From: an uncultured virus (IMG/VR IMGVR_UViG_3300011114_000961)
Taxonomy: Duplodnaviria; Heunggongvirae; Uroviricota; Caudoviricetes
Virus record (IMG/VR): IMGVR_UViG_3300011114_000961
Coordinates: 62,001-125,970 of that record
Strand: one strand, 5' to 3'
Length of the DNA: 63,970 nt
Positions 43,318-57,666 of the stretch are shown piece by piece. The notes under the pieces are model-generated. The model had not been told where the DNA came from. It was given only the letters and a program-made list of their open reading frames with translations, and made no database searches. The first letter of the stretch is position 1, and every line of letters begins with the position of its first letter. The translations under genes were made by a program, and so were the position numbers.

Positions 43318-43394
43318 GGGACCTTAGCTCATTAGGTTAGAGCAAGCGACTCATAATCGCTGGGTGGAGTGTTCGAATCACTCAGGTCCCACCA
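43318..43394 (+). tRNA. tRNA with CAT anticodon (Ile2 or elongator Met)
   Basis: Cloverleaf GGGACCT/AGGTCCC, CT-CAT-AA loop, encoded CCA; TTGACC-N17-TATACT upstream. Confidence 0.9.
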
Positions 43395-43399
43395 AACAA

Positions 43400-43474
43400 C
43401 TGGCGTTCGTATAATGGATAATACAGGGGATTTCTACTCCCTAAATAGCAGTTCGATTCTGTTACGCCGGACCA
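43400..43474 (+). tRNA. tRNA-Arg(TCT)
   Basis: Cloverleaf, loop TT-TCT-AC, TTCGATT T-loop, CCA. Confidence 0.85.
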
Positions 43475-43479
43475 GATTT

Positions 43480-43869
43480 ATGAAAAAAAACACAGTTGAC
43501 TATGACCTAGAGCAGGACATTCAAACATGTACCTGGATGTTGCAAAAAGTGCGAGACAGTGAGAACTACGCACAGAATCTTTATGCAGCCATGTGCAACA
43601 ATGTGTTTCAAAAAAACGAAGTATGGTCCTTGCTGAAAAATGAATACTGGTCATGCTCATGGCGCAGTGCCGGCGGCTTGATCTCCCGCTTGCGAAATGA
43701 AGGCGATTACATGGACTGGTACTGCTCAGGCATAGGAGATGGACTGGGCAATGGTGATGCTGACGGAACCAAAGGCTATGTGGGCGAAAGCGTGGTCACT
43801 GACGAAATACGGCAGGATCTGTTTGCCATCGGCTGGATGGTGCAACCATACGATGAAGAAGTTAGCTAA
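43480..43869 (+). CDS. Hypothetical phage protein
   Basis: YAQNLYAAMCNN..SCSWRSAG..DYMDWYCSG pattern. Confidence 0.75.
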   Translation: MKKNTVDYDLEQDIQTCTWMLQKVRDSENYAQNLYAAMCNNVFQKNEVWSLLKNEYWSCSWRSAGGLISRLRNEGDYMDWYCSGIGDGLGNGDADGTKGYVGESVVTDEIRQDLFAIGWMVQPYDEEVS

Positions 43870-43892
43870 ATATTTTTTTAAGAGGTAACACT

Positions 43893-43988
43893 ATGGCAAC
43901 ACGTAAAACAACAACCCCGCGACCCAAGAGCTTGAAAACCATGGCCAAACGAGCTGCTAAGGCCTATGTGCGTAAGCGCAGCAAGTAA
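43893..43988 (+). CDS. 31-aa highly basic peptide (absent from the ORF track)
   Basis: GAGGT RBS; MATRKTTTPRPKSLKTMAKRAAKAYVRKRSK. Confidence 0.65.
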   Translation: MATRKTTTPRPKSLKTMAKRAAKAYVRKRSK

Positions 43989-43993
43989 TTGCG

Positions 43994-44185
43994 ATGATAG
44001 TACGACTAGCAAACAAAATTGGTCAAGCACATGGACGTTTCTTCATGTGGTTGGGCAAGAAAGCAGAATCGAATCCTTGGTGGGCAGTGGCACTAACTGT
44101 GTGGGCGTTGTATGAAATTGGTGAACACATCGCAGGGCCGGTGATGGCCATTATGTATGCCACAGGGCACTTGGTTATCCAATGA
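43994..44185 (+). CDS. Small membrane protein
   Basis: 63-aa ORF with a hydrophobic segment. Confidence 0.55.
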   Translation: MIVRLANKIGQAHGRFFMWLGKKAESNPWWAVALTVWALYEIGEHIAGPVMAIMYATGHLVIQ

Positions 44186-44235
44186 TGTCAACTAAATGCA
44201 TATCTTGTGCGTTATATATGTATAGGAGATAAGTT

Positions 44236-44541
44236 ATGAAAAAAGTATTATTGGTAATTGCATTACTAGCAGCAACCGCAGCCCAAGCACAATGGCGTCA
44301 TGATCATCGACATTGGGACAACCGACCTGTTATTGTTGAACAAAGAAATGACTGGATTGGCCCATTGATCATTGGTGGTATTGCTGGAGCAGTAATTGCC
44401 AATGCTAACCAGCCACAACCAGTTGTGGTTCAACGTGAGCAAGTGATTGTACCACAACCCCAGACCATTTGCACAGCGTGGAGAGAAATTCAGATGCCGG
44501 ATGGTCAGATTTACCGTGAGCGTAATTGCTATCAACGATAA
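44236..44541 (+). CDS. Secreted/membrane small protein
   Basis: AGGAG RBS, signal peptide, glycine-zipper-like helix. Confidence 0.75.
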   Translation: MKKVLLVIALLAATAAQAQWRHDHRHWDNRPVIVEQRNDWIGPLIIGGIAGAVIANANQPQPVVVQREQVIVPQPQTICTAWREIQMPDGQIYRERNCYQR

Positions 44542-44549
44542 ATAAAAGT

Positions 44550-44840
44550 TATTGCTGTATGAAGCAAAGAGAAAAGTGTTCTGGACGCGGGTTCGACTCC
44601 CGCCAGGTCCACCAAAAGAACTTTTGCATTAGCCACACCAGAAATGCAGTATGTGGGGGAATGTTAGTCGATAGTTCTTTTGATGGGCCTGCCCTGGTTT
44701 CGACAGAGTAAAGAGTAACAGAGTGGACAGCACAAGAGCAACCTTGTAAAAAGAAGAAAATCTATAAACGCAAACGACGAACTGTTCGCATTAGCAGCCT
44801 AAACGCCGCTTAGGGTAAGACATACCTCGTAACAGAAATT
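44550..44840 (+). ncRNA. ssrA: Circularly permuted (two-piece) tmRNA; tag (A)ANDELFALAA
   Basis: T-arm plus CAGGTCC-A-CCA (ends 44614) precedes GGGCCTG (44685), giving a G3.U70 acceptor stem; tag ORF 44770-44802; outer ends approximate. Confidence 0.92.
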
Positions 44841-44841
44841 C

Positions 44842-44868
44842 AGAACCCGCTTTGGCGGGTTTCTTTTT
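44842..44868 (+). terminator. Intrinsic terminator after tmRNA
   Basis: aacccgc-tttg-gcgggtt plus T-rich tail. Confidence 0.85.
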
Positions 44869-45094
44869 GGCTTGTGTCAACGTGATGCTGGGCTACCGCG
44901 TTATATATGTATGCAAGACAAAAAACAACTTGATGACTATGAAACAAAAGCGGATAAAACCGAACCGTTTCAGGAACAGTATTTTCCCACCAGTTATGAT
45001 TGGAGACAATCCAATTGTGATGAGAGGCGCAGTACACCATGTCGTCGAACTGACAATGTCCGGCATAAATTTCATTAACCTAAAGGAACTCTAA

Positions 45095-45325
45095 ATGAAA
45101 ACCATCGCTACTGTTATCGCTACTTTGGTAGCAACTGCTGCTTTTGCCACCGAGCCTGCCAAGACTGCCGCACCTGCTGCCAGTGCCGCTGCACCTGCTG
45201 CTGCTGCAAAATGTGATCCTGCTAAAGACAAGACTTGCAAGGTAGAAGCCAAGGCAACGCCTGTCAAAAGTGAAGCACCTGCTGCCAAGGTCGAAACAAA
45301 AACAGCTGAGCCTGCAAAGAAGTAA
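45095..45325 (+). CDS. Secreted Ala/Lys/Pro-rich small protein
   Basis: AAGGA RBS, signal peptide ending AFA, Cys pair. Confidence 0.75.
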   Translation: MKTIATVIATLVATAAFATEPAKTAAPAASAAAPAAAAKCDPAKDKTCKVEAKATPVKSEAPAAKVETKTAEPAKK

Positions 45326-45567
45326 TCCAGACGAAATAGACGACAGCGACGATGATGGATATAACGATATTGATCTTCATGTGGCATATCGTCGTCCCAG
45401 TCTAATACCATGCAATGATCAATGTCATGACCACGATCAAGATGAATTGTCTGACCATGTGTTAGTTAGACTGGCTGTGGCCCGAGCCAAGGCATTGCAG
45501 GTCTTGACCAGAAAGGTTGCTTAGGCAACCTTTTTTGTTTATAATAAGTATTAAAGGACAACTCAAC

Positions 45568-45975
45568 ATGATTGACTGTATGATTTTAGGCGACAGCATT
45601 GCTGTAGGTACACATCAGTTCAGACCCGAATGCGTGGCCCATGCTCGTGGAGGTATCAACAGCTGGCAGTGGCGCAAAGAATATCTAGAACAAGATCAAG
45701 GTAACAATCTTGTGGCCGAAACAGTGATAATCAGCTTGGGATCCAATGATCATCGGGGCGTAAAAACTCTAGAAGAAATATCAAGAATACGATTGGCAGT
45801 AAGAGCCAAACGAGTATTTTGGATATTGCCGGCTATCAACCCTGATATACAAGCCCGTATACGGGAAGTTGCTGCTGGGTTTGGAGATACTGTTTTAGAA
45901 ATCAACAGATTACAACCTGATGGTATTCATCCCAGTTGGGCAGGCTACAAAAACATTGCCGAAAGAACAAAATAA
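45568..45975 (+). CDS. SGNH/GDSL hydrolase
   Basis: GDSIA, LGSND, DGIHP blocks. Confidence 0.85.
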   Translation: MIDCMILGDSIAVGTHQFRPECVAHARGGINSWQWRKEYLEQDQGNNLVAETVIISLGSNDHRGVKTLEEISRIRLAVRAKRVFWILPAINPDIQARIREVAAGFGDTVLEINRLQPDGIHPSWAGYKNIAERTK

Positions 45976-46220
45976 TGGGCAAGCAAACTGAATACTTTGA
46001 CAGCATTGGCTATCGACCCAAGTACTGGATCGGCGATCGTGTGTTTGGCCACTGGAACAAAATACCATTTGTGGGCAGTGTGGGCAACGACACTGTGATT
46101 GACAACACTGGCCCACGAATCTCAATACATTTAGATTTGCCAATTCAATTTGAACAAAAGATTCACCGCATCATAGTGGTCCGTCACAAAGATATAAAAA
46201 AACTGGTTCCAATGGATTAG
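45975..46220 (+). CDS. Hypothetical protein
   Basis: Coupled 81-aa ORF. Confidence 0.65.
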   Translation: MGKQTEYFDSIGYRPKYWIGDRVFGHWNKIPFVGSVGNDTVIDNTGPRISIHLDLPIQFEQKIHRIIVVRHKDIKKLVPMD

Positions 46221-46231
46221 TAAATAACAGT

Positions 46232-46423
46232 ATGAAAATTGACACAGCATACAACAATCAACTGCACAGGCTTCAAGACGTAAAACACGTGGACCAACAG
46301 CATCAGGAAAAAGTACAAGAAGCTGCTCGAGCAAAATTTCAACACCAGGTCGAAGAAGCCCATCGCATCGAAATCAATCGTCGCATGAATCGTCCAGGGC
46401 AAAACATTGATAAAATGGCCTAA
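46232..46423 (+). CDS. Hypothetical protein
   Basis: 63-aa ORF after TAAATA, ending GQNIDKMA. Confidence 0.6.
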   Translation: MKIDTAYNNQLHRLQDVKHVDQQHQEKVQEAARAKFQHQVEEAHRIEINRRMNRPGQNIDKMA

Positions 46424-46492
46424 CGTCGTGACACATTCACTTGCCCAGAATGCGGTTGTGGTCGGGAAGATTACGAAGAAATAATTATCTGA
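46424..46492 (+). pseudogene. Rubredoxin C-terminal remnant
   Basis: Startless frame RRDTFTCPECGCGREDYEEIII*, resembling the rubredoxin CPxCG..K.DF half. Confidence 0.55.
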
Positions 46493-46545
46493 TGAAAATT
46501 GCCGAAAACAATTGCTTTTTTGTCAATAGGCATATATAATACACT

Positions 46546-46644
46546 ATGATTATGCAACAAGCCCAACTGTCCCGAGAGATACCCTCACTCAACTATGCGA
46601 GTGAGGCGCTGGATTATGACTTCAGCGGGCCTAGTGATATTTGA
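46546..46644 (+). CDS. Putative leaderless leader peptide 1 (32 aa)
   Basis: TTGCTT-N17-TATAAT ends 5 nt before the ATG; followed by a terminator. Confidence 0.6.
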   Translation: MIMQQAQLSREIPSLNYASEALDYDFSGPSDI

Positions 46645-46662
46645 TACTACACAAATTTCACG

Positions 46663-46693
46663 AAAGACCCGCCAACTAGGCGGGTTTTTTTTT
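46663..46693 (+). terminator. Intrinsic terminator / attenuator 1
   Basis: acccgcc-aacta-ggcgggt plus T run. Confidence 0.85.
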
Positions 46694-46698
46694 GGTGG

Positions 46699-46824
46699 TT
46701 GACCACTAATTGCCCAACTGCTACAATAGCGGCAAGTAGGGAAAAACAGCAAGATTTGTAAAGTCCTTCCAAATTGTAGGGCTTTACAAAACCGGTTGAC
46801 CAGTATCGCACTTGGTGTTATACT
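46699..46824 (+). promoter_or_regulatory. Tandem sigma70-type promoters in front of the RNA island
   Basis: TTGACC-N17-TACAAT (46699) and TTGACC-N17-TATACT (46796), both with extended -10 TG. Confidence 0.75.
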
Positions 46825-46919
46825 AGAGACTAGTTAGAAAGCAGCACAGTGCATCGACACAGTGCAGCAAGTTCGTTAAAAATTTGATTTTGTATAGTGT
46901 ACTCAGATTCAGTTCTGAG

Positions 46920-47157
46920 CACTATATGTAAACACAATTATACAGGTTACCTACATCGTTAGGTGAGTGATAGGATTATGGGTTTGAGCCCCGCCGTGGC
47001 TGGCTACTCCTCCACTTACAAGATGCTGAATCAGTGGCTTAGGCCATGAAGATGAGGAAGACGAAACAGGTAGGCAGTAATGACGGCGATTGGTCTAATC
47101 ATAGCTAGATTAGATTTTATCAGCAAAGTTCCTGTATAATTGTGTTTTCATATAGTG
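46920..47157 (+). repeat. Conserved-stem RNA cassette 1
   Basis: 27-nt inverted repeat with one mismatch (cactatatgtaaacacaattatacagg / cctgtataattgtgttttcatatagtg). Confidence 0.8.
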
Positions 47158-47163
47158 AATCAT

Positions 47164-47238
47164 GGAGCATTCGTCTATCGGTTAGGACAGTGGGTTTTCA
47201 GTCCACTAAGAGCGGTTCGACTCCGCTATGCTCTACCA
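47164..47238 (+). tRNA. tRNA-Glu(TTC)
   Basis: Cloverleaf, TT-TTC-AG loop, CCA. Confidence 0.9.
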
Positions 47239-47280
47239 AGTTATGGAGAAGCGGGTGCTGCGGCATCTGTTATCCACCAA

Positions 47281-47466
47281 GTTTTGTAAGTGTAGATGTA
47301 GTGAAAGTAAGGCGTCGAAAACCTTATGAGGCAACGGTTCGAGTCCGGCAACATGGCAACTGCTAAGTAGCTACTATTACTACGTACCTCTATCCTGTCC
47401 GCGGCTTCACAGAAAATACAGGTAGAATGGTAGCAATGAGTGAGGTGCTGCTACTTACAAATTCAA
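47281..47466 (+). ncRNA. Unassigned structured RNA, copy A
   Basis: Shares terminal and internal motifs with 48282-48504; closing stem tttgtaagt/acttacaaa. Confidence 0.65.
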
Positions 47467-47475
47467 TTTATATGG

Positions 47476-47560
47476 TATTATATAAAAACACATTTTGCTT
47501 TGGATGCGTGACAACTTTGTCGGATGCGTAGGGCTTACTAAAGTGTGTTCCTATATGGTA
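47476..47560 (+). repeat. Conserved-stem RNA cassette 2
   Basis: tattatata-aa-aacacatttt / aaagtgtgtt-cc-tatatggta. Confidence 0.75.
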
Positions 47561-47609
47561 ATGTTATCTGCAGGTAGCATCCGTGCTGGGGAGTAATTGC
47601 CCTCAGGAA

Positions 47610-47677
47610 CTCGCGGTCTTCTAGTGGTTAGGATGCCCTTAGTGGGTGATGCAGGTTCGAATCCTGTCCGCAATGAG
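47610..47677 (+). other. tRNA-like element with shortened anticodon arm and no CCA
   Basis: D-loop AGTGGTTA and T-arm gcagg-ttcgaat-cctgt; anticodon hairpin only gccc-ttagt-gggt. Confidence 0.55.
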
Positions 47678-47680
47678 TTT

Positions 47681-47795
47681 GCCATATAAGAACATACTCC
47701 AGGTTGGGTTAGATTCGCGGTCTAACTATTTGGGTCTGTAGTGTAGCCCTCCAAAACTACACGTGACTAAGATACGTAGTGTGTTCCTATATGGT
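47681..47795 (+). repeat. Conserved-stem RNA cassette 3
   Basis: gccatata-ag-aacatact / agtgtgtt-cc-tatatggt. Confidence 0.75.
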
Positions 47796-47989
47796 AAGAA
47801 TCCCGTTACTACTTTCGTTAAAGTAGCGTTTGACTAGCGATAGAGGTCCGGTGGCAGAAGACCGTTAGCGGAGCAATCCTGAATCTGATAGGCAGTTATC
47901 TTTCTGCACACAGATACCAGATAAAAAAGATGGACAGAGTAACCGCTCAATCAAGGGCTGGTGTGGAAACCAGTAGCTTGTCCTTATTT

Positions 47990-48064
47990 GGTCTCAAAGT
48001 GTTCATGGACGCACACAACACTGTCACTGTTGAAGAAGGGGATCGTTACCCCTTGAGACCGCCA
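47990..48064 (+). tRNA. tRNA-Asp(GTC), atypical T-loop
   Basis: GGTCTCA/TGAGACC-G-CCA; CT-GTC-AC loop; T-loop ATCGTTA. Confidence 0.85.
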
Positions 48065-48110
48065 AGTTATGGAGAAGCGGATGCTACGGCATCTGTTATC
48101 CACCTTTTAT

Positions 48111-48183
48111 GTGTGAGAGCCGGATTAGTGACGGTGCTGATGTATGTCAGTGAAAGGGTGAGCGAACCCACCCCCACACACCA
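48111..48183 (+). other. Degenerate tRNA-like element ending ACCA
   Basis: Acceptor 6/7 paired, D-stem gccg/cggt, non-canonical anticodon and T loops. Confidence 0.5.
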
Positions 48184-48189
48184 AGTTAT

Positions 48190-48281
48190 CTCTGAGTAGA
48201 CGAATCGGTAAAGTCGTCCTTACTAGTAGGTCAAAAAGGTTCCAAAAACCTTGGTGGTTCAATTCCACTCTCAGAGGCCCA
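48190..48281 (+). other. Degenerate type II tRNA-like element (Leu-like; CTA/TAG in the loop)
   Basis: CTCTGAG/CTCAGAG acceptor, ggtgg-ttcaatt-ccact T-arm, long variable arm, irregular anticodon arm. Confidence 0.55.
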
Positions 48282-48504
48282 GTTTTGTAAGTGTCAGCAA
48301 GAGAAAGTCACGCTATACTGTATTCTTCGAAGGTACTTTATAGTAGAAGGTTAATGGGTTCAACTCCCACCCGCGGGCAACTGCGGAGGTCTGCAACGGA
48401 GACTGTACTGGACCTGTATCCCAAGTGACGTACCGAACCCCGCTCGAGCTTGTTAATTCGGGGGAATGGTAGCAATAGTGTGGTGCTACTACTTGCAAAT
48501 TCAA
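48282..48504 (+). ncRNA. Unassigned structured RNA, copy B
   Basis: Paralog of 47281-47466. Confidence 0.65.
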
Positions 48505-48509
48505 TATCA

Positions 48510-48585
48510 GCCCCGGTGATGTAACGGTAGCCATGTTGGTCTTAGAAACCAAATTCTGGGAGTTCGAGTCTCCCCTGGGGCACCA
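48510..48585 (+). tRNA. tRNA-Leu(TAG), short variable loop
   Basis: Cloverleaf, CT-TAG-AA loop, A73-CCA. Confidence 0.85.
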
Positions 48586-48594
48586 ATCAAAAAA

Positions 48595-48679
48595 GCGAGT
48601 GTGGCGTAATGGTAGCCGCATCAGACTTAAAATCTGAGGTCGTAATGGCGTGCCGGTTCGAGTCCGGCCACTCGTACCA
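48595..48679 (+). tRNA. tRNA-Leu(TAA)
   Basis: Type II cloverleaf, CT-TAA-AA loop, CCA. Confidence 0.92.
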
Positions 48680-48684
48680 ATTCA

Positions 48685-48776
48685 GGAAGATGATGCAGCG
48701 GGGATGGTCCTGCGACTGGCCTTGAAAACCAGGTTCTCTTAACAGGGATGGGGTTCGACTCCTCCGTCTTCCGCCA
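48685..48776 (+). tRNA. tRNA-Ser(TGA) with 8/4 acceptor/T-stem fold
   Basis: GGAAGATG/CGTCTTCC 8-bp acceptor, 4-bp T-stem, long variable arm, G73-CCA. Confidence 0.85.
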
Positions 48777-48835
48777 ATTTTACCAAAATCAGTTGACCAC
48801 TAAAAACAATGGTGTTATACTAGATAAATACATGC

Positions 48836-48914
48836 AGCGGAGTGGGGGAGTTCGGTCGTCCCCGGAAGTCTCATAAGCTTCAGATCGGTGGTTCAAATCC
48901 ATCCTCCGCATCCA
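48836..48914 (+). tRNA. tRNA-Met(CAT), initiator-like
   Basis: CT-CAT-AA loop, 1:72 mismatch, TTCAAAT T-loop; promoter TTGACC-N17-TATACT at 48793. Confidence 0.8.
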
Positions 48915-48995
48915 TTTTAACCTGTGTTGTATAAATACAACACAAGATATTTTAAGAGGTTGACTTCTTAAGATATATAACGTATAATTGATACT

Positions 48996-49121
48996 ATGAA
49001 AACGCAAATCTGTTCACTGTTGATTAAACCCATGCATCAGGCAAGTACCTGGGCGCGTGGCTATGGTCGCGTGAATACATTTCCAGGAGCCCGCGGGTCC
49101 TTGAGGAGTCATATACTGTAA
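48996..49121 (+). CDS. Putative leaderless leader peptide 2 (41 aa)
   Basis: TTGACT-N17-TATAAT (48960-48988) ends 7 nt before the ATG; followed by a terminator. Confidence 0.65.
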   Translation: MKTQICSLLIKPMHQASTWARGYGRVNTFPGARGSLRSHIL

Positions 49122-49142
49122 CAAGTATCAAGACATACCCAA

Positions 49143-49176
49143 AAGGACCCCGGAACTAAAAACTCCGGGGTTTTTC
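49143..49176 (+). terminator. Intrinsic terminator / attenuator 2
   Basis: accccgga-actaaaaac-tccggggt plus T run. Confidence 0.85.
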
Positions 49177-49400
49177 ATTTTGTAGAGTTGAATAGTGTGA
49201 ATAGGTAACGTGGACCTAGCCTGCACTTAAAACATGGGCAAACGGGCGGCCTCGGGGATGGCTTGTGTTCTTGTACATAAAAAAATCCGAGCGTATTAAA
49301 ACAGATTGCGTATCCGTTGCTGGTCGCTTGACAGAAATGTTATTCCCACAGCATACATTCTGTTTTAATACACACATTCGCAAGAGTGTGGAACAATTTT

Positions 49401-49483
49401 GGGGACATGGCAGGTGGTCGATTGCGACAGACTGTAAATCTGTTCTTAATAGCGCGGTGGTTCGAATCCATCTGTCTCCACCA
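49401..49483 (+). tRNA. tRNA-Tyr(GTA)
   Basis: Cloverleaf, CT-GTA-AA loop, CCA. Confidence 0.9.
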
Positions 49484-49587
49484 GTTATTGTATAGAGAGC
49501 TTCGATTACGGCACCTCTATACAAAACAACATAGAAGGCGTAATCCTAGTCTGCCCAGTAGCAGAGCGTCTATGTTGTGTTTTTTTC

Positions 49588-49663
49588 GGGGGATTGGTAT
49601 ACTTGGCTAACACACCTGGTTTGCAACCAGGAGCAAACGGTTCGAATCCGTTATCCTCCACCA
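49588..49663 (+). tRNA. tRNA-Ala(TGC)
   Basis: G3.U70 pair, TT-TGC-AA loop, CCA. Confidence 0.92.
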
Positions 49664-49670
49664 GTTTTGT

Positions 49671-49744
49671 TGGGACATTGTGTAATGGTAGCACAACAGA
49701 CTTTGACTCTGTTAGCCTAGGTTCGATCCCTAGTGTCCCTGCCA
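49671..49744 (+). tRNA. tRNA-Gln(TTG)
   Basis: Cloverleaf, CT-TTG-AC loop, CCA. Confidence 0.92.
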
Positions 49745-49745
49745 A

Positions 49746-49821
49746 GCAACTTTAGCTGATGTGGTCATAGCGGCGGCCTGAAGAGCCGTTGAAGTAGGTT
49801 CGATTCCTACAGGTTGCACCA
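49746..49821 (+). tRNA. tRNA-Phe(GAA)
   Basis: Cloverleaf, CT-GAA-GA loop, CCA. Confidence 0.9.
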
Positions 49822-49828
49822 ACAACAT

Positions 49829-49906
49829 GTAGCGGTGGCAGAGTGGCCCAATGCATGGGATTGCAAATCCCAAAAACCGTGAGTTCAAATCTCACCCGCT
49901 ACTCCA
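49829..49906 (+). tRNA. tRNA-Cys(GCA)
   Basis: TT-GCA-AA loop, U73-CCA. Confidence 0.92.
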
Positions 49907-49955
49907 AGTCAAGTCCATACAGCCCTTTGACGGCTTCGTCCCTGGACAGTTTTTT

Positions 49956-50032
49956 ACCGCCTTGGCTCAATTGGATAGAGCACTGGATTACGAATCCGGG
50001 GGTTGGGAGTTCGAATCTCTCAGGTGGTACCA
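49956..50032 (+). tRNA. tRNA-Arg(ACG)
   Basis: TT-ACG-AA loop, CCA. Confidence 0.92.
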
Positions 50033-50042
50033 TTTGTTATAT

Positions 50043-50119
50043 GGTGTCTGTCGCCAAGTGGTTAAGGCCTCGGGTTGTGATTCCGACATGCGTGGGTTCG
50101 ATCCCCATCAGACACCCCA
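50043..50119 (+). tRNA. tRNA-His(GTG)
   Basis: G-1:C73 pair, TT-GTG-AT loop, CCA. Confidence 0.92.
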
Positions 50120-50124
50120 GTTTT

Positions 50125-50199
50125 GGTTGTGTGACGTAGATGGATGCGTACCGCCCTCATAAGGCGAGGAGGTTGGATCGATGCCAACCACAACCACCA
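50125..50199 (+). tRNA. tRNA-Met(CAT), atypical T-loop
   Basis: GGTTGTG/CACAACC acceptor, CT-CAT-AA loop, T-loop ATCGATG. Confidence 0.8.
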
Positions 50200-50202
50200 T
50201 GT

Positions 50203-50276
50203 GTATCCATAGTGTAATGGCAGCATCGCGGTCTCCAAAACCGTCAGTCTAGGTTCGAGTCCTAGTGGGTACGCCA
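50203..50276 (+). tRNA. tRNA-Trp(CCA)
   Basis: CT-CCA-AA loop, G73-CCA. Confidence 0.92.
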
Positions 50277-50316
50277 AGTTTTTTATATGCTGTCGATACA
50301 GCATAAGTATTTTCAC

Positions 50317-50406
50317 GGAACGGTCCTATAATGGTATTAGAGCAGATTGCTAATCTGTCGCTCGGCGTAATCCGGGTTCTGAGTTCGAGTCTCAGTCGTT
50401 CCGCCA
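50317..50406 (+). tRNA. tRNA-Ser(GCT)
   Basis: TT-GCT-AA loop, long variable arm, G73-CCA. Confidence 0.9.
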
Positions 50407-50413
50407 AGTTTAT

Positions 50414-50489
50414 TCCTCAGTAGCACAGCGGTAGTTGCACTTGACTGTTAATCAAGATGTCCGTGGTTCGATCCCACGCTGAGGAGCCA
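50414..50489 (+). tRNA. tRNA-Asn(GTT)
   Basis: CT-GTT-AA loop, G73-CCA. Confidence 0.93.
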
Positions 50490-50508
50490 ATTTAATTTAG
50501 GAAACAAA

Positions 50509-50673
50509 ATGTCATCATTTAACACAAGCAACGATCCCATGAAGCATCACAGTGGCAAACCCAGACTGGGACCGCTGAATGTTGCTCAACTCACCAAGAT
50601 GTTGGAGAGTGCCAGGCCCAAGCACCGAGCCAAGATTCAACGTGCTATAGACAAAAGATCAAAGACATCCTAA
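50509..50673 (+). CDS. 54-aa basic hypothetical protein (absent from the ORF track)
   Basis: AGGAAA RBS; MSSFNTSNDPMKHHSGKPRLGPLNVAQL... Confidence 0.6.
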   Translation: MSSFNTSNDPMKHHSGKPRLGPLNVAQLTKMLESARPKHRAKIQRAIDKRSKTS

Positions 50674-50680
50674 CAATCAC

Positions 50681-50754
50681 GCCCTACTAGTACAATGGCA
50701 GTACACTGGTTTTGTAATCCTGTGATGGCAGTTCGATTCTGTCGTGGGGCACCA
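50681..50754 (+). tRNA. tRNA-Thr(TGT)
   Basis: TT-TGT-AA loop, CCA. Confidence 0.88.
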
Positions 50755-50773
50755 ATTTTTCAAAGGAGAACGT

Positions 50774-51034
50774 ATGGAACGATACAAACAACTAGTTCGC
50801 ATCCAGCGTTGTATCCTGGGCGAAGTAGATCACGAAGTAACTGTTCGCAATATTGACGGCAACTATCACTGCCGTGTGTATGTCAACGGTGAACTCAATC
50901 AAGAAGCAGTATGCTTGAACAAGCGTGACATCAGTTACACTTGCCGTAGTATGTTGCGGTGGGAAGACAAGTGCGGCAACTTTAGCGAATTTGCTACTGC
51001 GGCTCGAGCTCGACTCAACAAAGAACACATTTAA
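50774..51034 (+). CDS. Hypothetical protein
   Basis: AAGGAG RBS, 86 aa. Confidence 0.7.
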   Translation: MERYKQLVRIQRCILGEVDHEVTVRNIDGNYHCRVYVNGELNQEAVCLNKRDISYTCRSMLRWEDKCGNFSEFATAARARLNKEHI

Positions 51035-51128
51035 AAGGAAACATGACATGAAACGTGCTAAACGCTAGTGTCAATCCAGATCCCATGTAGGTCCGGGTTG
51101 GCACGTGAAAGACAATTTTACATACCAA

Positions 51129-51203
51129 CCCTCTAAGATGTTAAGGCAGCATGCCGGACTCTTAATCCGTGACGTCCGAGTTCAAATCTCGGTAGAGGGA
51201 CCA
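51129..51203 (+). tRNA. tRNA-Lys(CTT)
   Basis: CCCTCTA/TAGAGGG acceptor, CT-CTT-AA loop, CCA. Confidence 0.88.
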
Positions 51204-51207
51204 ACAT

Positions 51208-51283
51208 GGGATCGTGGTGAAATGGTTATCACAGCGGACTTTTAATCCGCCAGTTCCCGGTTCGAATCCGGGCGGTCCTACCA
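51208..51283 (+). tRNA. tRNA-Lys(TTT)
   Basis: CT-TTT-AA loop, CCA. Confidence 0.92.
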
Positions 51284-51364
51284 TATAAAAACACATTACC
51301 TAGTAGTAGCGGCGTACCCGTGAGCTATTAGTAGTCCTGCAGGCTAGTGTGTTTCTATATGGTA
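51279..51364 (+). repeat. Conserved-stem RNA cassette 4 (overlaps the tRNA-Lys CCA)
   Basis: taccatata-aa-aacacatta / tagtgtgtt-tc-tatatggta. Confidence 0.8.
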
Positions 51365-51410
51365 AAACTCAAGTTGACAAGGATCAACTTTGATGCTACA
51401 ATAAGATTTC

Positions 51411-52304
51411 AAGGGCGGTTTAACGTCCTATAAGCCAGCTTGCTGGTTTATGAAGAATAACTGTGGTGACACAGCCAAAGGAGGTATGCCTACATAACTC
51501 CGCTAGAGATAGTTCGTTTAAGCAAGCCTGCTCACTACCGTGAGGTAGCGATCACTGATAAGACCGGTGGTTGTAACAATGACGCTGGATGTTGTGGAAA
51601 GAACGTTGATTTACAAGCCCGCAAGGGGAACTTGAGTCGATGGAAAGTAACAGGTGGTGCTGACTTCACAACTAAACCAGTCCAGTTAATTAGTATGAGA
51701 AAGGGTAGCGTATTTGTCCGAGGGGTTGCACCCAAGGGCTCGTATGCAGTTTGAGTGGTTAGTGGGTCTGTCGAAAGGCGGGGACACACCGATCGCAAAA
51801 GACGACTGAGTAGTTCGCAAGACAAAAGGTACGTGGTGTGTTGTATTGTGTATTCCAAAAGAGTATGCAGCAACTGAGTCAGCACATCGCAGTAGGTTCA
51901 GTTATAGGCTAATGGTAGGCCGATTTCCTTTTAAGAAATAGACTGAAGGTTCAACTCCTTCTAACGATTAAAACGCAAAGACTGACTCGGTTGTATGTGA
52001 AAAGCATCTAATACTTGGCTCGCAAGAGAACCAAGTCTAATGAAGCTCGCAAGGTGACATTAGTTTATGCAGGAAGTTTCGTAAGGTGTTAGCGCACTTG
52101 AATGGCTCGCAAGGTCAACGGAATAGAAAGCGTAGAATAGCATACAGCGTCAAGACTACTGCCTGTCTCTAAACGGCGATGCTGACAGCAGACCAGGATA
52201 CCTAGAAATAGGGCCGGGTGGAAGTCGGAAGAAAGTATACTCGCAAGGTGTACAATAATGTCCGAGGTGTTGTTGGAGAGGATGTATTCTCAGTCCTTTC
52301 ACCA
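51411..52304 (+). ncRNA. Large ornate ncRNA, GOLLD-like, with embedded tRNA-Lys-like domain
   Basis: ~890 nt without a plausible ORF; own promoter TTGACA-N17-TACAAT (51374); about nine GNRA-type hairpins; ends pair (aagggc/gtcctt); lies inside a tRNA array. Confidence 0.75.
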
Positions 52305-52389
52305 TATGCAAACACATTAGATACCTTTTAGCATACGTTCGCACGGCGCTCTTGTATGTTAGATTACTTTTAGTGTGTTTCCATATGGT
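52301..52389 (+). repeat. Conserved-stem RNA cassette 5
   Basis: accatatg-ca-aacacattag / ttagtgtgtt-tc-catatggt. Confidence 0.8.
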
Positions 52390-52526
52390 TATCATATAAA
52401 TGCTTTCTGTAGTAGCTACACTGGAACAACACCAACCTTCACTAGCCCGCGGCGTGTGAAGAAGTGCCAGGAAGAGCAGGGCTACCGTGGATTCAAGCGC
52501 CGCAGAGAGCACCTATATATTATCAT

Positions 52527-52601
52527 GGCCGGTTAGCTCAGGGGGAGAGCATCGTCTTGATAAGGCGAGGGTCGATGGTTCGAAACCATCACCGGCTACC
52601 A
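52527..52601 (+). tRNA. tRNA-Ile(GAT)
   Basis: TT-GAT-AA loop, CCA. Confidence 0.92.
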
Positions 52602-52615
52602 AAAGACAGTTCATT

Positions 52616-53512
52616 ATGATTTATACATTAGGATGTAGTTTTACAAAATGGTATTGGCATACCTGGAGCGATTGGTTGAGCGAATATTCCACAGACACTG
52701 TTATCAACCTGGCCTGGCCCGGACGCAGCAATCAAACACAGTATTGGGAACTGTTGTCAAGATCAAAAGATATCACCCAGGACGATACTGTGATCATCAT
52801 GCTGAGTGGCAGCAATCGTGTCACAACATGGTACGACCAAGACTGGGTTGATCAGCACGATTGTCAAGGATTCTTTCCAGCTGCTGGAAGACTAGAATGC
52901 TCTCCAGTGCCCTGGCGCGGATTATATCGCACACACCCTGATCACGAAACAAGTCTTACACACATGATCGTGGATAATTTTTCTACCATATACCAAATCC
53001 AACATCTGTTGAATCAGATTGGGTGTCGTTATCACATGGTGTTTTGGCAAAATCCTTGGTTTGATGTTAGGCCTACTGTGACCATTGATTCCTGGAAATA
53101 TCGTTGGGATAGTTGCAATCAACTTTCCTCAATTGAATTGAACACTGCAAGTGAAATATTAAAGATTCCAGCAGTTTCCAATCTGTTGTCTCTTATTGAC
53201 TGGAACCGGTTTTTTATGCCACCAAAGGATCCACAGGATCCAAAATCTTATCAAGGACTATGGGAGTACAAGACTGCTCGGCAGTGTACACAAGAATATT
53301 TAGAATGTGTACACTCTGACCCACATCCCGATGCACTGATTCAGCATGATTTCTTAGTTGAAATAATACTAGGGCAGTCATTGGAAAACAACAGCACCCG
53401 GGCACGAGCACGAGACTTGGCCCTCCTGTGTTTGTCTCATGATGTAAAGATATCGTATCAAGACTTGATACCAATCTCAGCCCAAAACACTTTGAGAAAA
53501 ATTTACGAATGA
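52616..53512 (+). CDS. SGNH-like hypothetical protein
   Basis: GCSFT, NLAWPGRSN, DPHP motifs; paralog of 36696-37403. Confidence 0.65.
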   Translation: MIYTLGCSFTKWYWHTWSDWLSEYSTDTVINLAWPGRSNQTQYWELLSRSKDITQDDTVIIMLSGSNRVTTWYDQDWVDQHDCQGFFPAAGRLECSPVPWRGLYRTHPDHETSLTHMIVDNFSTIYQIQHLLNQIGCRYHMVFWQNPWFDVRPTVTIDSWKYRWDSCNQLSSIELNTASEILKIPAVSNLLSLIDWNRFFMPPKDPQDPKSYQGLWEYKTARQCTQEYLECVHSDPHPDALIQHDFLVEIILGQSLENNSTRARARDLALLCLSHDVKISYQDLIPISAQNTLRKIYE

Positions 53513-54420
53513 AAAACGTTTTGTTAATTGCATCATTTGGATCAGGGTCTACTTATTTTCAAAGAGCAGCCACTTTCTGGATTAGAGAACTGATACAACC
53601 TAATCTTGTCAATCCGCATGAATTGCTAAATGGAATAGGTGTTGGGGAGCAAGGCTATTTGATAAAAAAATGGGCCGACGTCAATACACAGAGTTTTGAT
53701 GAGTTGTCTGGGTTGTTGTCATCCAGTGCTAATCCTGTACTGGTGCGATTGGCCTATGACCATTGGCTGAATCGCAGCGAAACCAAATCACAACAAGAAT
53801 TATTTACAGAATACTTACGCAATAATTTCACAGTGTTTGGTAGCATACGAGACAATATTTTTGATTATGCATTGAGTTATGCTGTGCGACGCTGCACTGA
53901 CCGCCCGGCATCACAGCAGATCAACAACGTACACAGTGCCAAAGATCGTGTGCGCTTGTATGGAGATAAAAGATTTGAAGTTGACACAGATATTGTTATA
54001 CAACAATCACAACGATATCTCGACTATCGCAATTGGTTAAGTAACACATTTCCCGGATTTGTTCCGTTGTTGTACGAAGAGTTGTCAAGTGATATTGATG
54101 CAGTGCTGTGCCGATATTTTCCCACCCAACAAACAATCAAACAAAAATATGGCATCAGTATTGCCGAGTACACACAGTACCATTATGAGATTAGCAAAAA
54201 CATTGATCCAGAATTTGATGCAGACATGATTTCGGCCGTTGAGGCAATTGATAACACATTGTCAATCATGTGCAGTGATCAAGTCATGCTTGATACCATT
54301 CCTATCAAATCTACCACTCCGGCGGACAAGAGGCAGATTGTGATAAATTTTGTGCAGTGTGTTGATGCGTACAATCGCTGGGCTAGAGATAACAATCTAC
54401 CCGACTATTTGGAAAACTAA
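53509..54420 (+). CDS. Sulfotransferase-fold-like hypothetical protein
   Basis: GSGSTY, R..FDYALS, LLYEEL motifs. Confidence 0.55.
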   Translation: MKNVLLIASFGSGSTYFQRAATFWIRELIQPNLVNPHELLNGIGVGEQGYLIKKWADVNTQSFDELSGLLSSSANPVLVRLAYDHWLNRSETKSQQELFTEYLRNNFTVFGSIRDNIFDYALSYAVRRCTDRPASQQINNVHSAKDRVRLYGDKRFEVDTDIVIQQSQRYLDYRNWLSNTFPGFVPLLYEELSSDIDAVLCRYFPTQQTIKQKYGISIAEYTQYHYEISKNIDPEFDADMISAVEAIDNTLSIMCSDQVMLDTIPIKSTTPADKRQIVINFVQCVDAYNRWARDNNLPDYLEN

Positions 54421-54489
54421 TAATCAGATAGCAGTTGACAGGCAATATAAGTAAGTCTATAATGTAGATTGTCTAATATCAAAAAATAT

Positions 54490-54563
54490 GCGGGGTTCGT
54501 AAAATGGTATTACCTTAGCCTTCCAAGCTAAAGTCAGGAGTTCGATTCTCCTACCCCGCTCCA
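54490..54563 (+). tRNA. tRNA-Gly(TCC)
   Basis: CT-TCC-AA loop, U73-CCA; promoter TTGACA-N17-TATAAT at 54435. Confidence 0.92.
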
Positions 54564-54722
54564 GTTTTAGGGAGTTGGCTTCTGTACAGAAAGTCGTTAT
54601 GCCAACTTTAAACAACAAAGATCTCACGCACTCAACGATCGGAGAGGTTGTGCCCTAATTTTTACAAAGACTCTCCCTGACAGGCGGAGTATAATAGGAA
54701 AAGTTGTCTGTCACAAATTTTT

Positions 54723-54797
54723 GCCTGGTTAGCTCAGGGGGAGAGCATCTCGTTTACACCGAGAGGGTCCGCGGTTCGAAACCGTGACCAGGTACCA
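54723..54797 (+). tRNA. tRNA-Val(TAC)
   Basis: TT-TAC-AC loop, CCA. Confidence 0.92.
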
Positions 54798-55045
54798 TGA
54801 ATATGATTGAATACATAACAACATTTTTTGCCCTGTTCTGCATAGATATTTTTTACACATACTATCTAAGAGCAGTAGCAGATGGCCGGGCCATGCTTGC
54901 CAGCTCGTGGTCTGTGGTTGTTACTATTTTAGGAGCATTTGTGGTTATCAACTACACAACCGATCACATGTTACTGGTGCCAGCTGCATTGGGCGCATTC
55001 TGTGGCACGTTTGTGGGCATGAGATTGAAGAAGCAAGCAGAATAA
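54797..55045 (+). CDS. Small three-helix membrane protein
   Basis: Hydrophobic 82-aa ORF between tRNAs. Confidence 0.7.
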   Translation: MNMIEYITTFFALFCIDIFYTYYLRAVADGRAMLASSWSVVVTILGAFVVINYTTDHMLLVPAALGAFCGTFVGMRLKKQAE

Positions 55046-55047
55046 TT

Positions 55048-55124
55048 CGGAGTGTGGCGCAGTCTGGTAGCGCACCTGGTTTGGGACCAGGGGGTCCAAG
55101 GTTCGAATCCTTGTACTCCGACCA
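55048..55124 (+). tRNA. tRNA-Pro(TGG)
   Basis: C1:G72 pair, TT-TGG-GA loop, CCA. Confidence 0.93.
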
Positions 55125-55291
55125 AAGAGCAGCGTATGAGTTACATCATTCAGTATGAGTTGACAAGGTAGGTACCTAATCCTTGCAGCAGGCAATAGTA
55201 CATACATCAATGTAACAGGTGAGCAGTGATCTGCTTCGTAGGGGATACCTCAAAGATGTTCTCCACCAATTTTTTATAAGGAAGCAAGAGA

Positions 55292-55555
55292 ATGAAAGCA
55301 AGTCACATTTTGGTAAAAACACTCAACGAAGCGGTGTCACTGAAAAACAAACTAAATGAAGGTGCAAGTTTTGCCGACCTGGCACGAGCACACAGCACAT
55401 GCCCCAGTGGCGAACGCGGTGGAGACCTTGGCGAGTTTGGATCAGGACAGATGGTCCGACCATTTGAAGATGCCACCTTGGCAACTGCTGTGGGTTCAAT
55501 CAGCCAACCTGTGCAAACGCAGTTTGGTTACCATTTGATACATCGCACTGGTTAA
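55292..55555 (+). CDS. ppiC: Parvulin-type peptidyl-prolyl isomerase
   Basis: [33 protein letters not shown] motifs. Confidence 0.93.
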
Positions 55556-55560
55556 TACAT

Positions 55561-55652
55561 ACCAGCGAGACTTGGGAGTCAGAGAGGTCTTATAAGCCTT
55601 TTAGCGCCAGATTAGCGTTCTTGAGAGAGTTCGATCCTCTCCGCTGGTACCA
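55561..55652 (+). tRNA. Atypical tRNA with TAT anticodon (Ile), long variable arm, minimal D-arm
   Basis: ACCAGCG/CGCTGGT-A-CCA; gaggt-CT-TAT-AA-gcctt; T-arm gagag-ttcgatc-ctctc. Confidence 0.75.
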
Positions 55653-55656
55653 ATTT

Positions 55657-55731
55657 GGATGTGTAGCACAGTGGTAGTGCATCAGCTCGACATGCTGAGG
55701 GTCACAGGTTCGAGCCCTGTCTCATCCACCA
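55657..55731 (+). tRNA. tRNA-Val(GAC), C at position 33
   Basis: tcagc-TC-GAC-AT-gctga; CCA. Confidence 0.82.
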
Positions 55732-55738
55732 AGAATAT

Positions 55739-55817
55739 GCCCCGGTGGACAAATCTGGCAAAGTCGCTTCTCTCAAAAGGAAGAGTTCTGCGAGTTCGAC
55801 TCTCGCCCGGGGTACCA
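55739..55817 (+). tRNA. tRNA-Leu(CAA), short variable loop
   Basis: cttct-CT-CAA-AA-ggaag; A73-CCA. Confidence 0.85.
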
Positions 55818-55842
55818 AACAATTTAAAAGAAAGGACAAGCT

Positions 55843-56271
55843 ATGAGTGAATTTAATGTATTAGTAGGCAAGCGCATCAATGGCTTGTTCATAGGTAACG
55901 ACAAGTGGAGCCTGGTGTTTCGTGACATCTCTGGGCGTCGCTATCGTTTTGACACTGAAAATGACTGCTGCAATTCTGTATGGTTCAACCATGTGACTGG
56001 CGTAAATATCTTAGGCGAGGGCAACAGCTTTGACCTGTTGCGCGGGGTAGAAGTGCTGGCTGTGGAGGACAAGGGCTGGGGCGACAATCGCAGCGACGAA
56101 GATGGATGCGAAGTGGTACAAGATGCGTTCTGGACTATCCGCACCAACCGTGGCTACATTGACCTTGAAGTGCGTAACAGCCACAACGGTTATTATGGTG
56201 GTAGCGTAAGGTACAACAAAGAAGATTCAGGACGGTTAACTGATTTAGAATTGATCACCGAGGACTTCTAA
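55843..56271 (+). CDS. Hypothetical phage protein
   Basis: DCC and SHNGYYG motifs; AAGGA RBS. Confidence 0.75.
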   Translation: MSEFNVLVGKRINGLFIGNDKWSLVFRDISGRRYRFDTENDCCNSVWFNHVTGVNILGEGNSFDLLRGVEVLAVEDKGWGDNRSDEDGCEVVQDAFWTIRTNRGYIDLEVRNSHNGYYGGSVRYNKEDSGRLTDLELITEDF

Positions 56272-56285
56272 CCTAGAAGAAACTT

Positions 56286-56756
56286 ATGAAAAAATTAGAT
56301 TTAAAACAAGTGTCTGAATTTATTCAAGCACAAACACCAGAAACACGTATCTACATTGGTTGCGACAGTGAAAGAATCAAGATCGATGGTGAATGGTGGG
56401 CCGACTATGTGTTGGCCATTGTGGTACACATCAACGGCAACAACGGATGCAAACTGTTTGGTGAAGTACATCGCGAACGTGTGTACGACGCAAAGCCAGG
56501 CAAGCCAGCCATGCGTCTCATGACCGAAGTGTACAAGGTGTCCGAACTGTATCTCAAACTGGCCGACGTGCTGGAAGGTCGTGATGTTGAAGTACATCTT
56601 GACATCAACCCAGACGAAATGCACGGATCCAGCTGTGTTATTTCACAGGCCATTGGCTACATCAAAGGCACTTGCAACGTGATACCTTTTGTGAAGCCAC
56701 AGGCATTTGCTGCTTCGTATGCTGCTGACCGACTGAAAGGTTTGAAAGCAGCCTGA
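56286..56756 (+). CDS. RNase H-like YkuK-family protein
   Basis: IYIGCDS, RLMTEV, EVHLDIN, KP.AFAAS.AAD motifs. Confidence 0.85.
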   Translation: MKKLDLKQVSEFIQAQTPETRIYIGCDSERIKIDGEWWADYVLAIVVHINGNNGCKLFGEVHRERVYDAKPGKPAMRLMTEVYKVSELYLKLADVLEGRDVEVHLDINPDEMHGSSCVISQAIGYIKGTCNVIPFVKPQAFAASYAADRLKGLKAA

Positions 56757-57083
56757 CCAAAACAGTTGACAGCGTTGACTGTTTTGTGTAAAATAGTTTT
56801 TGTCAGTGCAAACTGGCAGGCAAGATCAGGATAGATTAGAACAGACAAACTGTTGGCTTCATGCCAGCATCGGCTTCCAAAGCTGAATTAACTCTGACCT
56901 CCAAGGCAACTTGGATCGTGCTTGTGTGAACCGGACATATTATAGACATTTGCACTTTGATAACCGGGCATACGCAGGCCACTGTGGATTGTGCATTGTA
57001 TTTTGAGCATTGCGAATTGCATAGTCTGTGACTTGATTCGGGTCTTGCCACCCTTGTTGTTTTATTGTTGAAAGAAAGAAATT

Positions 57084-57656: not shown

Positions 57657-57666
57657 TAGAAATTTT

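Follow-up and report, generated by a model that had tools for sequence, protein, structure and literature searches.

A candidate ribosome-dependent attenuator heading the tRNA array of a huge freshwater phage family

The leader unit and its relatives

The DNA considered here, which we call the window, is a stretch of 63,970 nucleotides that makes up the latter half of a viral record of 125,970 bases (IMG/VR IMGVR_UViG_3300011114_000961). The record is rated 36% complete, which implies a whole phage of ~350 kb, and the DNA polymerase of this phage shares 46–50% amino-acid identity with those of cultured jumbo phages of 349–490 kb (Sinorhizobium phage Phosso, Agrobacterium phage Atu_ph07, Vibrio phage 2.275.O and Serratia phage BF). 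At 43318–58042, the window carries 34 tRNA genes and a permuted transfer-messenger RNA (tmRNA) gene, all on the plus strand, and a GOLLD RNA is also present. The subject of this study is a short unit within that array, made up of a promoter, a small open reading frame (ORF) and an intrinsic terminator, which is a candidate transcription attenuator of the tRNA genes that follow it (Table 1).

Table 1. Features of the leader unit and of neighboring elements in the window
Feature	Position	Strand	Details
Sigma-70-type promoter	48960–48988	+	TTGACT (48960–48965), 17-nt spacer, TATAAT (48983–48988); 11/12 consensus positions
Leader ORF (putatively leaderless)	48996–49121	+	41 codons, MKTQICSLLIKPMHQASTWARGYGRVNTFPGARGSLRSHIL; TAA stop at 49119–49121
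Predicted antiterminator, 5' strand	49091–49102	+	CCG-C-GGGTCCTT; helix P1 core GGGTCC at 49095–49100
Predicted inner antiterminator hairpin	49103–49142	+	From the fold of the window sequence; apical stem 49113–49117/49124–49128; stop codon in apical loop
Predicted antiterminator, 3' strand	49143–49153	+	AAGGACCC-CGG; overlaps 5' arm of terminator
Intrinsic terminator	49148–49181	+	Stem CCCCGGA 49148–49154/TCCGGGG 49164–49170; loop ACTAAAAAC 49155–49163; T-run from 49171; dG -12.7
Conserved structured RNA	49205–49395	+	Directly 5' of first tRNA; 24/34 RNAalifold pairs with compensatory changes
First tRNA block without own promoter	49401–51283	+	Tyr to Lys-TTT, 14 tRNAs; whole array ends at 58042
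Paralogous unit lead2	46512–46693	+	Promoter TTGCTT-17-TATAAT; leaderless ATG at 46546; 32-codon ORF to 46644

The ATG of the leader lies 7 nt past the -10 hexamer, which leaves no space for a ribosome-binding site, and the mRNA would therefore be leaderless. Within the ORF, GGGTCCTT (49095–49102) is exactly complementary to AAGGACCC (49143–49150). The transcript from 48995 to 49182 folds with a z score of -3.24, and none of 200 shuffled sequences folds equally well. A stem-loop scan reported the terminator on the minus strand only because its loop limit of 8 nt excluded the 9-nt loop. The tRNA genes at 49401–58042 serve 18 amino acids, with tRNA-Glu (47164) and tRNA-Asp (47990) lying upstream of the leader, and the leader peptide contains exactly those 18 amino acids, lacking only Asp and Glu. 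The rare codons AGG and ATA occur in it as codons 37 and 40, and tRNAs with the anticodons CCT and TAT are encoded in the window. A promoter scan of the window found no promoter-like site of at least 9/12 on the plus strand between 48988 and 50648.

An earlier note on this DNA had drawn attention to the promoter, the ATG without a ribosome-binding site, the ORF, the terminator, the complementary segments, the 18-amino-acid match and the ATA and AGG codons, and every one of these statements agrees with the letters. The note also laid stress on the use of 18 of the 20 amino acids. The count is correct, but it is ordinary for the window taken alone, as 18 or more different amino acids in 41 residues have a probability of 0.25 in the phage's own proteins. 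Somewhat less ordinary is that all 18 fall within codons 1–29 (48996–49082; p = 0.025), the zone in which a stalled ribosome would leave GGGTCC free. What lifts the unit above chance is the conservation of the whole architecture in relatives and not the window by itself.

Relatives were collected by searches that specified the terminator only (AAGGACCC, loop and T-run), with its variable positions entered as N; the pattern required nothing of the promoter, the frame, GGGTCC or the tRNA array. A first scan with the terminator pattern gave 33 viral loci and a looser pattern gave 40, whereas a still looser one gave at least 120 metagenome matches, of which 80 were fetched and 5 of these proved too short upstream. 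In addition, a protein encoded within the tRNA array led to three distant relatives. One of them, L005, has the same leader-terminator unit. Its ORF, of 46 codons, has diverged and uses all 20 amino acids, and its terminator shows three compensatory changes. Altogether, 102 distinct leader peptides were obtained, forming 46 clusters at 70% identity and 15 at 50%.

The order of parts in this family is a sigma-70 promoter, an ATG, an ORF of 34–52 codons, GGGTCC, a hairpin bearing the stop codon, and AAGGACCC overlapping the terminator. A promoter of at least 10/12 lies within 90 nt 5' of the ATG in 90 of the 102 members, and GGGTCC is found in 95. By the spacing of their ATG (4–12 nt past the -10 hexamer), 45 of the 102 leaders are leaderless; another 45 have an A-rich 5' untranslated region with an AAGGA-type motif. 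The leader stop codon is located 18–32 nt before AAGGACCC and is TAA in 98 leaders, TAG in 4 and TGA in none. Downstream sequence of 1200 nt or more is available for 65 loci, and in 64 of these a tRNA on the same strand follows the unit after a gap of 172–1004 nt; minus-strand tRNAs were never encountered. The gap between terminator and tRNA is without a promoter-like site of at least 10/12 in 59 of 82 loci. Among the 80 metagenome loci, the terminator loop reads ATTAAAAAC in 54, ACTAAAAAC in 25 and ACTAAAAAT in 1, where the pattern had required only A..AAAA.., and the flank CAAACTYCAAGGACCC is likewise conserved beyond what a plain terminator needs.

Outside viral and metagenome sequences, the family is hard to find. 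A search of the genome collection returned two matches. The first, found on a contig of 6.2 kb in a Polynucleobacter metagenome-assembled genome, is typical of the family; this is a weak hint at the host and may be a binning artifact. The second, in Hymenobacter, is a chance terminator and not a family member. When 48700–49500 was compared by blastn with 50,697 phage records, 140 records matched in their tRNA parts only, and none covered 80% of the query. The 101-nt 3' part gave nine weak records, the best of which, Burkholderia phage BcepSaruman, has an ordinary terminator after a coding sequence and is not a member. The pattern GGGTCC-N25-55-GGACCC matched once, in one of the four cultured polymerase relatives, and a reversed control matched equally often, so that this match is attributed to chance. 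By the blastn comparison and the pattern search in the four polymerase relatives, the element occurs in no cultured phage of the collection.

Pairing, frame and leader composition

The RNA of the unit can form two mutually exclusive structures. An alignment of the terminator from 28 of the 31 distinct sequences of the viral set (L064 and two near-duplicates being excluded) has 196 of 196 stem cells paired, and three of the seven pairs show compensatory changes. The alternative, an extended hairpin running from GGGTCC to GGACCC, has a predicted energy of about -25 kcal/mol versus about -11 for the terminator, and the antiterminator hairpin appears in the full-length minimum-energy fold of 22 of 30 sequences. 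The inner hairpin segments (93 distinct) fold better than their shuffled versions, with a mean z score of -3.0 and 97% of values below -1. All 93 contain the stop codon within the hairpin, 91 of them on its 5' strand or in its loop.

The earlier note had predicted covarying antiterminator and terminator pairing in related phages, and such covariation is seen. In addition to the compensatory terminator pairs, the seventh pair of helix P1 varies among the 59 sequences of the largest cluster, being G-C in 28, A-U in 28 and G-U in 2 (RNAalifold). Across the family, the nucleotide immediately 5' of GGGTCC pairs with position 4 of the terminator arm in 85 of 98 sequences (G-C 30, A-U 52, G-U 3), and the same position 4 pairs with its terminator partner in 98 of 98. 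One nucleotide that covaries with two alternative partners is the signature of a switch. The distance from stop codon to terminator stem, 20–34 nt across the family, is of interest here. In Escherichia coli, according to PMC4824070, a ribosome at the stop codon no longer blocks the terminator beyond 27 nt, and the observed range straddles this threshold.

The leader frame is open in every relative, as had been predicted. Over 28 sequences, no internal stop interrupts the ATG frame and 91 and 66 stops fall in the remaining two; per sequence, a frame of this length would be free of stops by chance with a probability of 0.06–0.14. The frame is retained in all 102 distinct relatives. The peptide itself, for which low conservation had been predicted, is held much more loosely. 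Depending on the leader, GGGTCC encodes either Gly-Ser or Arg/Trp-Val, and there are insertions and deletions that restore the frame. The ratio of nonsynonymous to synonymous substitution rates (dN/dS) is 0.90 in the largest cluster, 0.57 in the clade of the window and 0.41 in a third cluster, and in the largest cluster the three codon positions are equally variable (0.44, 0.39 and 0.40). The leader peptide thus appears to be nearly free of protein-like selection, while the frame is kept. With regard to how such frames might be read, the window has three further promoters of 11–12/12 (58043–58071, 59812–59840 and 62490–62518), each 6 nt before the ATG of a longer ORF, and leaderless initiation appears to be common in this phage.

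What the leaders do conserve is breadth of content. All 20 amino acids are present in 58 of the 102 leaders and 19 in another 27 (range 16–20), against a null mean of ~17 and a null probability of ~3% for 20, and no leader has a run of a single codon. With one representative per cluster, the mean is 19.1 versus a null of 16.7 over 44 clusters (combined p = 4e-13), or 18.8 versus 16.6 over 13 clusters (p = 3e-4). The high codon and amino-acid diversity foreseen in the earlier note is therefore a property of the family. It is also maintained in an unusual way. In 60 sequences of the largest cluster, permutation of alignment columns predicts 79 ± 6 absences of an amino acid and only 11 are observed. 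Single codons hop among alignment columns (Cys among 16, Tyr among 11, His among 10), and nearly every sequence retains one. The hopping of Cys, Tyr and His codons is an unusually clean case of selection on the content of a peptide and not on its sequence.

The note's idea that leader content mirrors the downstream tRNA genes holds across the family. In 35 loci with at least 5 kb of downstream sequence, an amino acid with a downstream tRNA gene is present in the leader in 538 of 548 cases, whereas one whose tRNAs are upstream only is present in 9 of 19. For the viral set alone, the figure with a downstream tRNA gene is 322/329, against 34/51. When leaders were permuted among 20 cluster representatives, 17 of 22 absent amino acids were found to lack a downstream tRNA versus 6.6 expected (p < 5e-5), and with 10 representatives the figures were 8 of 13 versus 3.8 (p = 0.0145). 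In the 17 sequences of the window's clade, Cys, Phe, His, Asn and Arg are maintained and Asp, Glu and Tyr are not, and the Asp, Glu and Tyr tRNA genes of this clade lie upstream. Tyr is missing from the leader in all seven sequences with an upstream tRNA-Tyr and present where tRNA-Tyr is downstream, as in the window. The match extends to codons: 396 of 449 downstream anticodons are covered by the leaders, compared with 317 ± 8 for random codons and 380 ± 6 after synonymous reshuffling (p = 0.0025).

Neighboring elements

A second unit of the same kind, lead2, lies upstream of the first and encodes the peptide MIMQQAQLSREIPSLNYASEALDYDFSGPSDI. Its segment GCGGGCCT (46625–46632) can pair with AGACCCGC (46665–46672) at the foot of a terminator with the stem 46668–46673/46679–46684 followed by T9. 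Lead2 is conserved in eight further distinct relatives, in which the ends are kept and the body of the ORF has diverged. It always stands ahead of Glu, Tyr and Asp tRNA genes, and 9 of 9 lead2 leaders contain Glu, Tyr and Asp, which echoes the mirror seen for the main unit. In two relatives (L054 and L074), lead2 is downstream of the main unit, whose leader there lacks Asp and Tyr; this removes four of the ten apparent exceptions to the mirror. Rfam gives weak Trp- and Phe-leader matches around the lead2 terminator (46593–46693; 25.7 versus 41 bits and 29.8 versus 55 bits), both below threshold.

The space between the terminator and the first tRNA is also occupied. The structured RNA found there in the window occurs as well in L053, L040, L060, L061, L076, L050, L073, L047, L070 and others, and its covariation was computed on 14 of the 23 collected sequences. 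It comprises a hairpin with the loop AACGNGR, the motif CAAACGGGCGG and a covarying long-range helix, GTATTAAAGCAT/ATGCTTTAATAC, and has no Rfam match at 49205–49395. A reading of this RNA as a boxA/nut-like site was dropped because the stretch is base-paired and covarying. It is pure conjecture that the RNA might add to control, for example by letting polymerase pass stops farther along. In 10 of 12 relatives examined (L041, L078, L073, L052, L047, L058, L046, L051, L055 and L042), an ORF of 51–61 amino acids led by a Shine-Dalgarno (SD) motif starts 11–27 nt after the T-run, between the terminator and the structured RNA; the window has none. Its product carries the motif HTLT.EQ..KLI.DK.ERA..Y, with no convincing Pfam or PHROG family. 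A distance of 11–27 nt leaves too little room for a promoter, and read-through of the terminator must therefore occur in those relatives.

Several other features of the array were recorded. The GOLLD RNA (51833–52296, Rfam 202 bits) has a tRNA-Lys embedded at 51898–51969, and contigs from RNA libraries (at least 90% identity) are deep over 51425–52027 in this region. The permuted tmRNA at 44502–44893 encodes the tag ANDELFALAA and matches the Rfam models for betaproteobacterial and permuted tmRNA; the tag of the relative L037 is ANDSQFALAA. A 93-nt tRNA with anticodon CTA at 48189–48281, called Pyl by ARAGORN, would read the amber codon. A long-arm tRNA-like sequence at 48685–48772 was not called by ARAGORN and scores 36.8 bits with the Rfam tRNA-Sec model, below the threshold of 47; its anticodon loop, judged by eye, suggests a Ser tRNA. 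A near-repeat of ~43 nt (47236–47278 and 48062–48104) overlaps the 3' ends of tRNA-Glu and tRNA-Asp and extends ~40 nt beyond them. Finally, at 47807–48007 and 48209–48409 the contig depth in four RNA libraries rises into the thousands, far over the neighboring bins; the source may be an abundant RNA that is conserved, or similar sequences of other organisms.

Mechanism, alternatives and known systems

We observe how the unit is built and that it is conserved, that its RNA has an alternative pairing, that the frame stays open without selection on the peptide, and that the leaders match the downstream tRNAs. On this basis, we consider it probable that the unit is a ribosome-dependent transcription attenuator that senses tRNA supply and heads the tRNA array in a family of huge freshwater phages. 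The strong promoter would yield an RNA that starts at or near the AUG of the leader. Without a suitably placed ribosome, GGGUCC near the 3' end of the ORF would pair with GGACCC, closing the more stable hairpin and capturing the first 3–6 nt of the terminator 5' arm, and transcription would continue into the tRNA genes. Were a ribosome to follow polymerase closely, it would melt this hairpin on its way to the stop codon at the hairpin tip; the terminator would then form, and transcription would end. Slow decoding anywhere in the first ~30 codons would increase read-through and induce the tRNA genes. A leader in which every amino acid served by the downstream tRNAs has one codon or more would be a feedback sensor for exactly those tRNAs. 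In this scheme, we infer leader translation, the coupling of ribosome and polymerase, the direction of the switch and the physiological trigger.

This proposal can be extended to the array as a whole, although here we are more tentative and put the chance at somewhat short of even. Control would be modular and cis-acting: at the head of each tRNA sub-array, a "translation speedometer" would carry one codon or more for the amino acid of each controlled tRNA, such that loss of any one tRNA raises transcription of the genes that replace it. If so, the loss may come from host tRNA decay, from tRNA-cleaving defenses or from the phage's own shut-off. It would also follow that the first leader no longer keeps its Glu, Tyr and Asp codons once the corresponding tRNA genes have come to lie behind a second attenuator. 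The attenuator function itself, like the link to anticodon nucleases made in the earlier note, is what we infer here and not what we observe.

A number of observations weigh against the attenuator proposal. First, the six core pairs of P1 are invariant and hence uninformative, and a further helix, P2, is paired in 68.5% of cells of a MAFFT alignment versus 65.7% when the partner is slid by one column. The near-invariant terminator loop, A[CT]TAAAAAC, is left unexplained by an attenuator. Second, the motifs YWS and NDRTPE are conserved in the peptide, which together with dN/dS values of 0.41–0.57 in two clusters indicates that some peptide or RNA constraint is left. Third, the mirror between leader and tRNA genes is one-sided, as amino acids without any tRNA gene in the flank are still present in 85 of 98 cases (35 loci), and the mirror statistics are corrected for shared descent only in part. 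Despite downstream tRNAs, Val is missing from the leaders of L064, L075 and L087 and Lys from those of L054/L074, and Glu occurs only in the tail of the ORF in 50 of 101 leaders. The ATA and AGG codons of the window are also in the tail. The earlier note had supposed that stalling on them would allow read-through; both lie inside the antiterminator, and a stall there should favor termination. Fourth, promoter-like sites lie in the gap in 23 of 82 loci and directly after lead2 in the window (10/12 at 46699 and 46796), and the next sites of at least 10/12 after the main terminator, at 51374 and 54435, limit the span that the unit can control. Finally, RNA-library contigs cover the leader and bridge the terminator (49016–49241, 49109–49260 and 49132–49259), with ends and levels that are not readable and DNA as a possible source. 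The depth of such contigs over 49013–49213 exceeds that over 49214–49414 in three of four runs, but contig depth cannot rank parts of a transcript and is not used as evidence.

One alternative is that attenuation is coupled to translation but reports its general capacity (elongation rate, ribosome availability or host shut-off) and not particular tRNAs, the broad content of the leader being a by-product. The anatomy and the switch would be identical, any slowing of the ribosome would act alike, and amino acids without a nearby tRNA gene are also mostly present. Yet such a reporter does not explain why amino acids are retained by hopping between alignment columns, why Asp, Glu and Tyr are released where their tRNA genes are upstream or behind lead2, or why synonymous codon choice favors the downstream anticodons. 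We therefore regard it as unlikely, although it keeps some weight.

A different possibility is a small gene complete in itself, with a promoter and terminator of its own, that gives a trans-acting small RNA, a small protein or both, while the tRNA array is transcribed from elsewhere. The strong promoter and terminator do delimit an RNA of ~180 nt with a significant fold, the terminator loop and the flanking CAAACTTCAAGGACCC are conserved beyond the need of a plain terminator, and promoter-like sites follow the unit in 23 of 82 loci, as they follow lead2. Attenuator-derived small RNAs with functions in trans are also known, as described in PMC6614838. A functional protein, however, is difficult to reconcile with dN/dS near 0.9, and a purely non-coding RNA with a frame that stays open through frame-restoring indels while the other frames hold 91 and 66 stops. 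The fixed site before tRNA arrays, the SD-led genes just past the T-run and the promoter-free gaps require read-through, and a pairing that competes and covaries with the terminator would serve no purpose in a stand-alone gene. The balance of these points makes this possibility quite unlikely. As for an ordinary promoter, spurious ORF and terminator that merely resemble a unit in a tRNA-rich intergenic region, the window alone would allow it (the 18 amino acids are unremarkable, and an 8-nt complement within 50 nt is not rare), but conservation of every element outside the search pattern in 102 distinct viral and metagenome sequences refutes it, and we give it practically no credence.

The purpose of phage tRNA genes is debated, with codon usage, host tRNA degradation and escape from tRNA-cleaving defenses all proposed, and to our knowledge next to nothing has been reported on their regulation. 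If the tRNA-sensing attenuator proposed here is real, it would be without precedent among known attenuators, both in controlling tRNA genes and in sensing many tRNA species at once, and it would mean that phages measure translation capacity and respond to it. The element is ~230 nt long and driven by consensus sigma-70 promoters, and the question can thus be put to a direct test. The full-text literature searched, a body that leaves most subscription journals outside its coverage, contained no description of an element of this kind.

The nearest known systems are the trp, his, leu, thr, phe and ilv leaders, where a short ORF ahead of the regulated genes is followed by a terminator and a mutually exclusive antiterminator. 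As in leaders of the trp/his type, the antiterminator takes the terminator 5' arm and the position of the ribosome would decide between the structures. Unlike them, the phage leaders have no run of a single codon but sample 16–20 amino acids, their targets are phage tRNA genes and not biosynthetic enzymes, half of the members are predicted to be leaderless, and the antiterminator carries the stop codon at its tip. Nor was an anti-antiterminator hairpin of the 1:2 type identified in the phage unit, and the default state without translation would therefore be read-through. Rfam leader models stay below threshold at 49074–49180 (Thr_leader 18 versus 55 bits, His_leader 16.7 versus 49). T-box riboswitches also control transcriptional read-through by tRNA status, and do so by binding one uncharged tRNA directly, without translation; the phage unit, in contrast, would need its ORF, and the region has no Rfam T-box match.

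Two further comparisons are instructive. In mycobacteria, leaderless polycysteine short ORFs act as cysteine-responsive attenuators, according to bioRxiv 10.1101/834739. The phage unit resembles these in using a putatively leaderless 5'-AUG short ORF, its start placed by promoter spacing, as a putative translation-dependent sensor for downstream genes. It differs in that the mycobacterial ORFs respond to one amino acid through consecutive Cys codons in a bacterial operon, whereas the phage codons are diverse (the window peptide has a single Cys and no consecutive Cys codons) and the targets are tRNA genes. As in coupling attenuation of the pyrBI type, the outcome would be set by how close the leading ribosome is to polymerase at the terminator; in that system, as PMC4824070 describes it, a close ribosome blocks the terminator directly, whereas in the phage the stop codon is 20–34 nt before the stem and melting of the antiterminator is proposed. 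The phage unit therefore has the logic of the trp/his attenuators, yet stands outside the Rfam leader families and does without the codon run that defines them.

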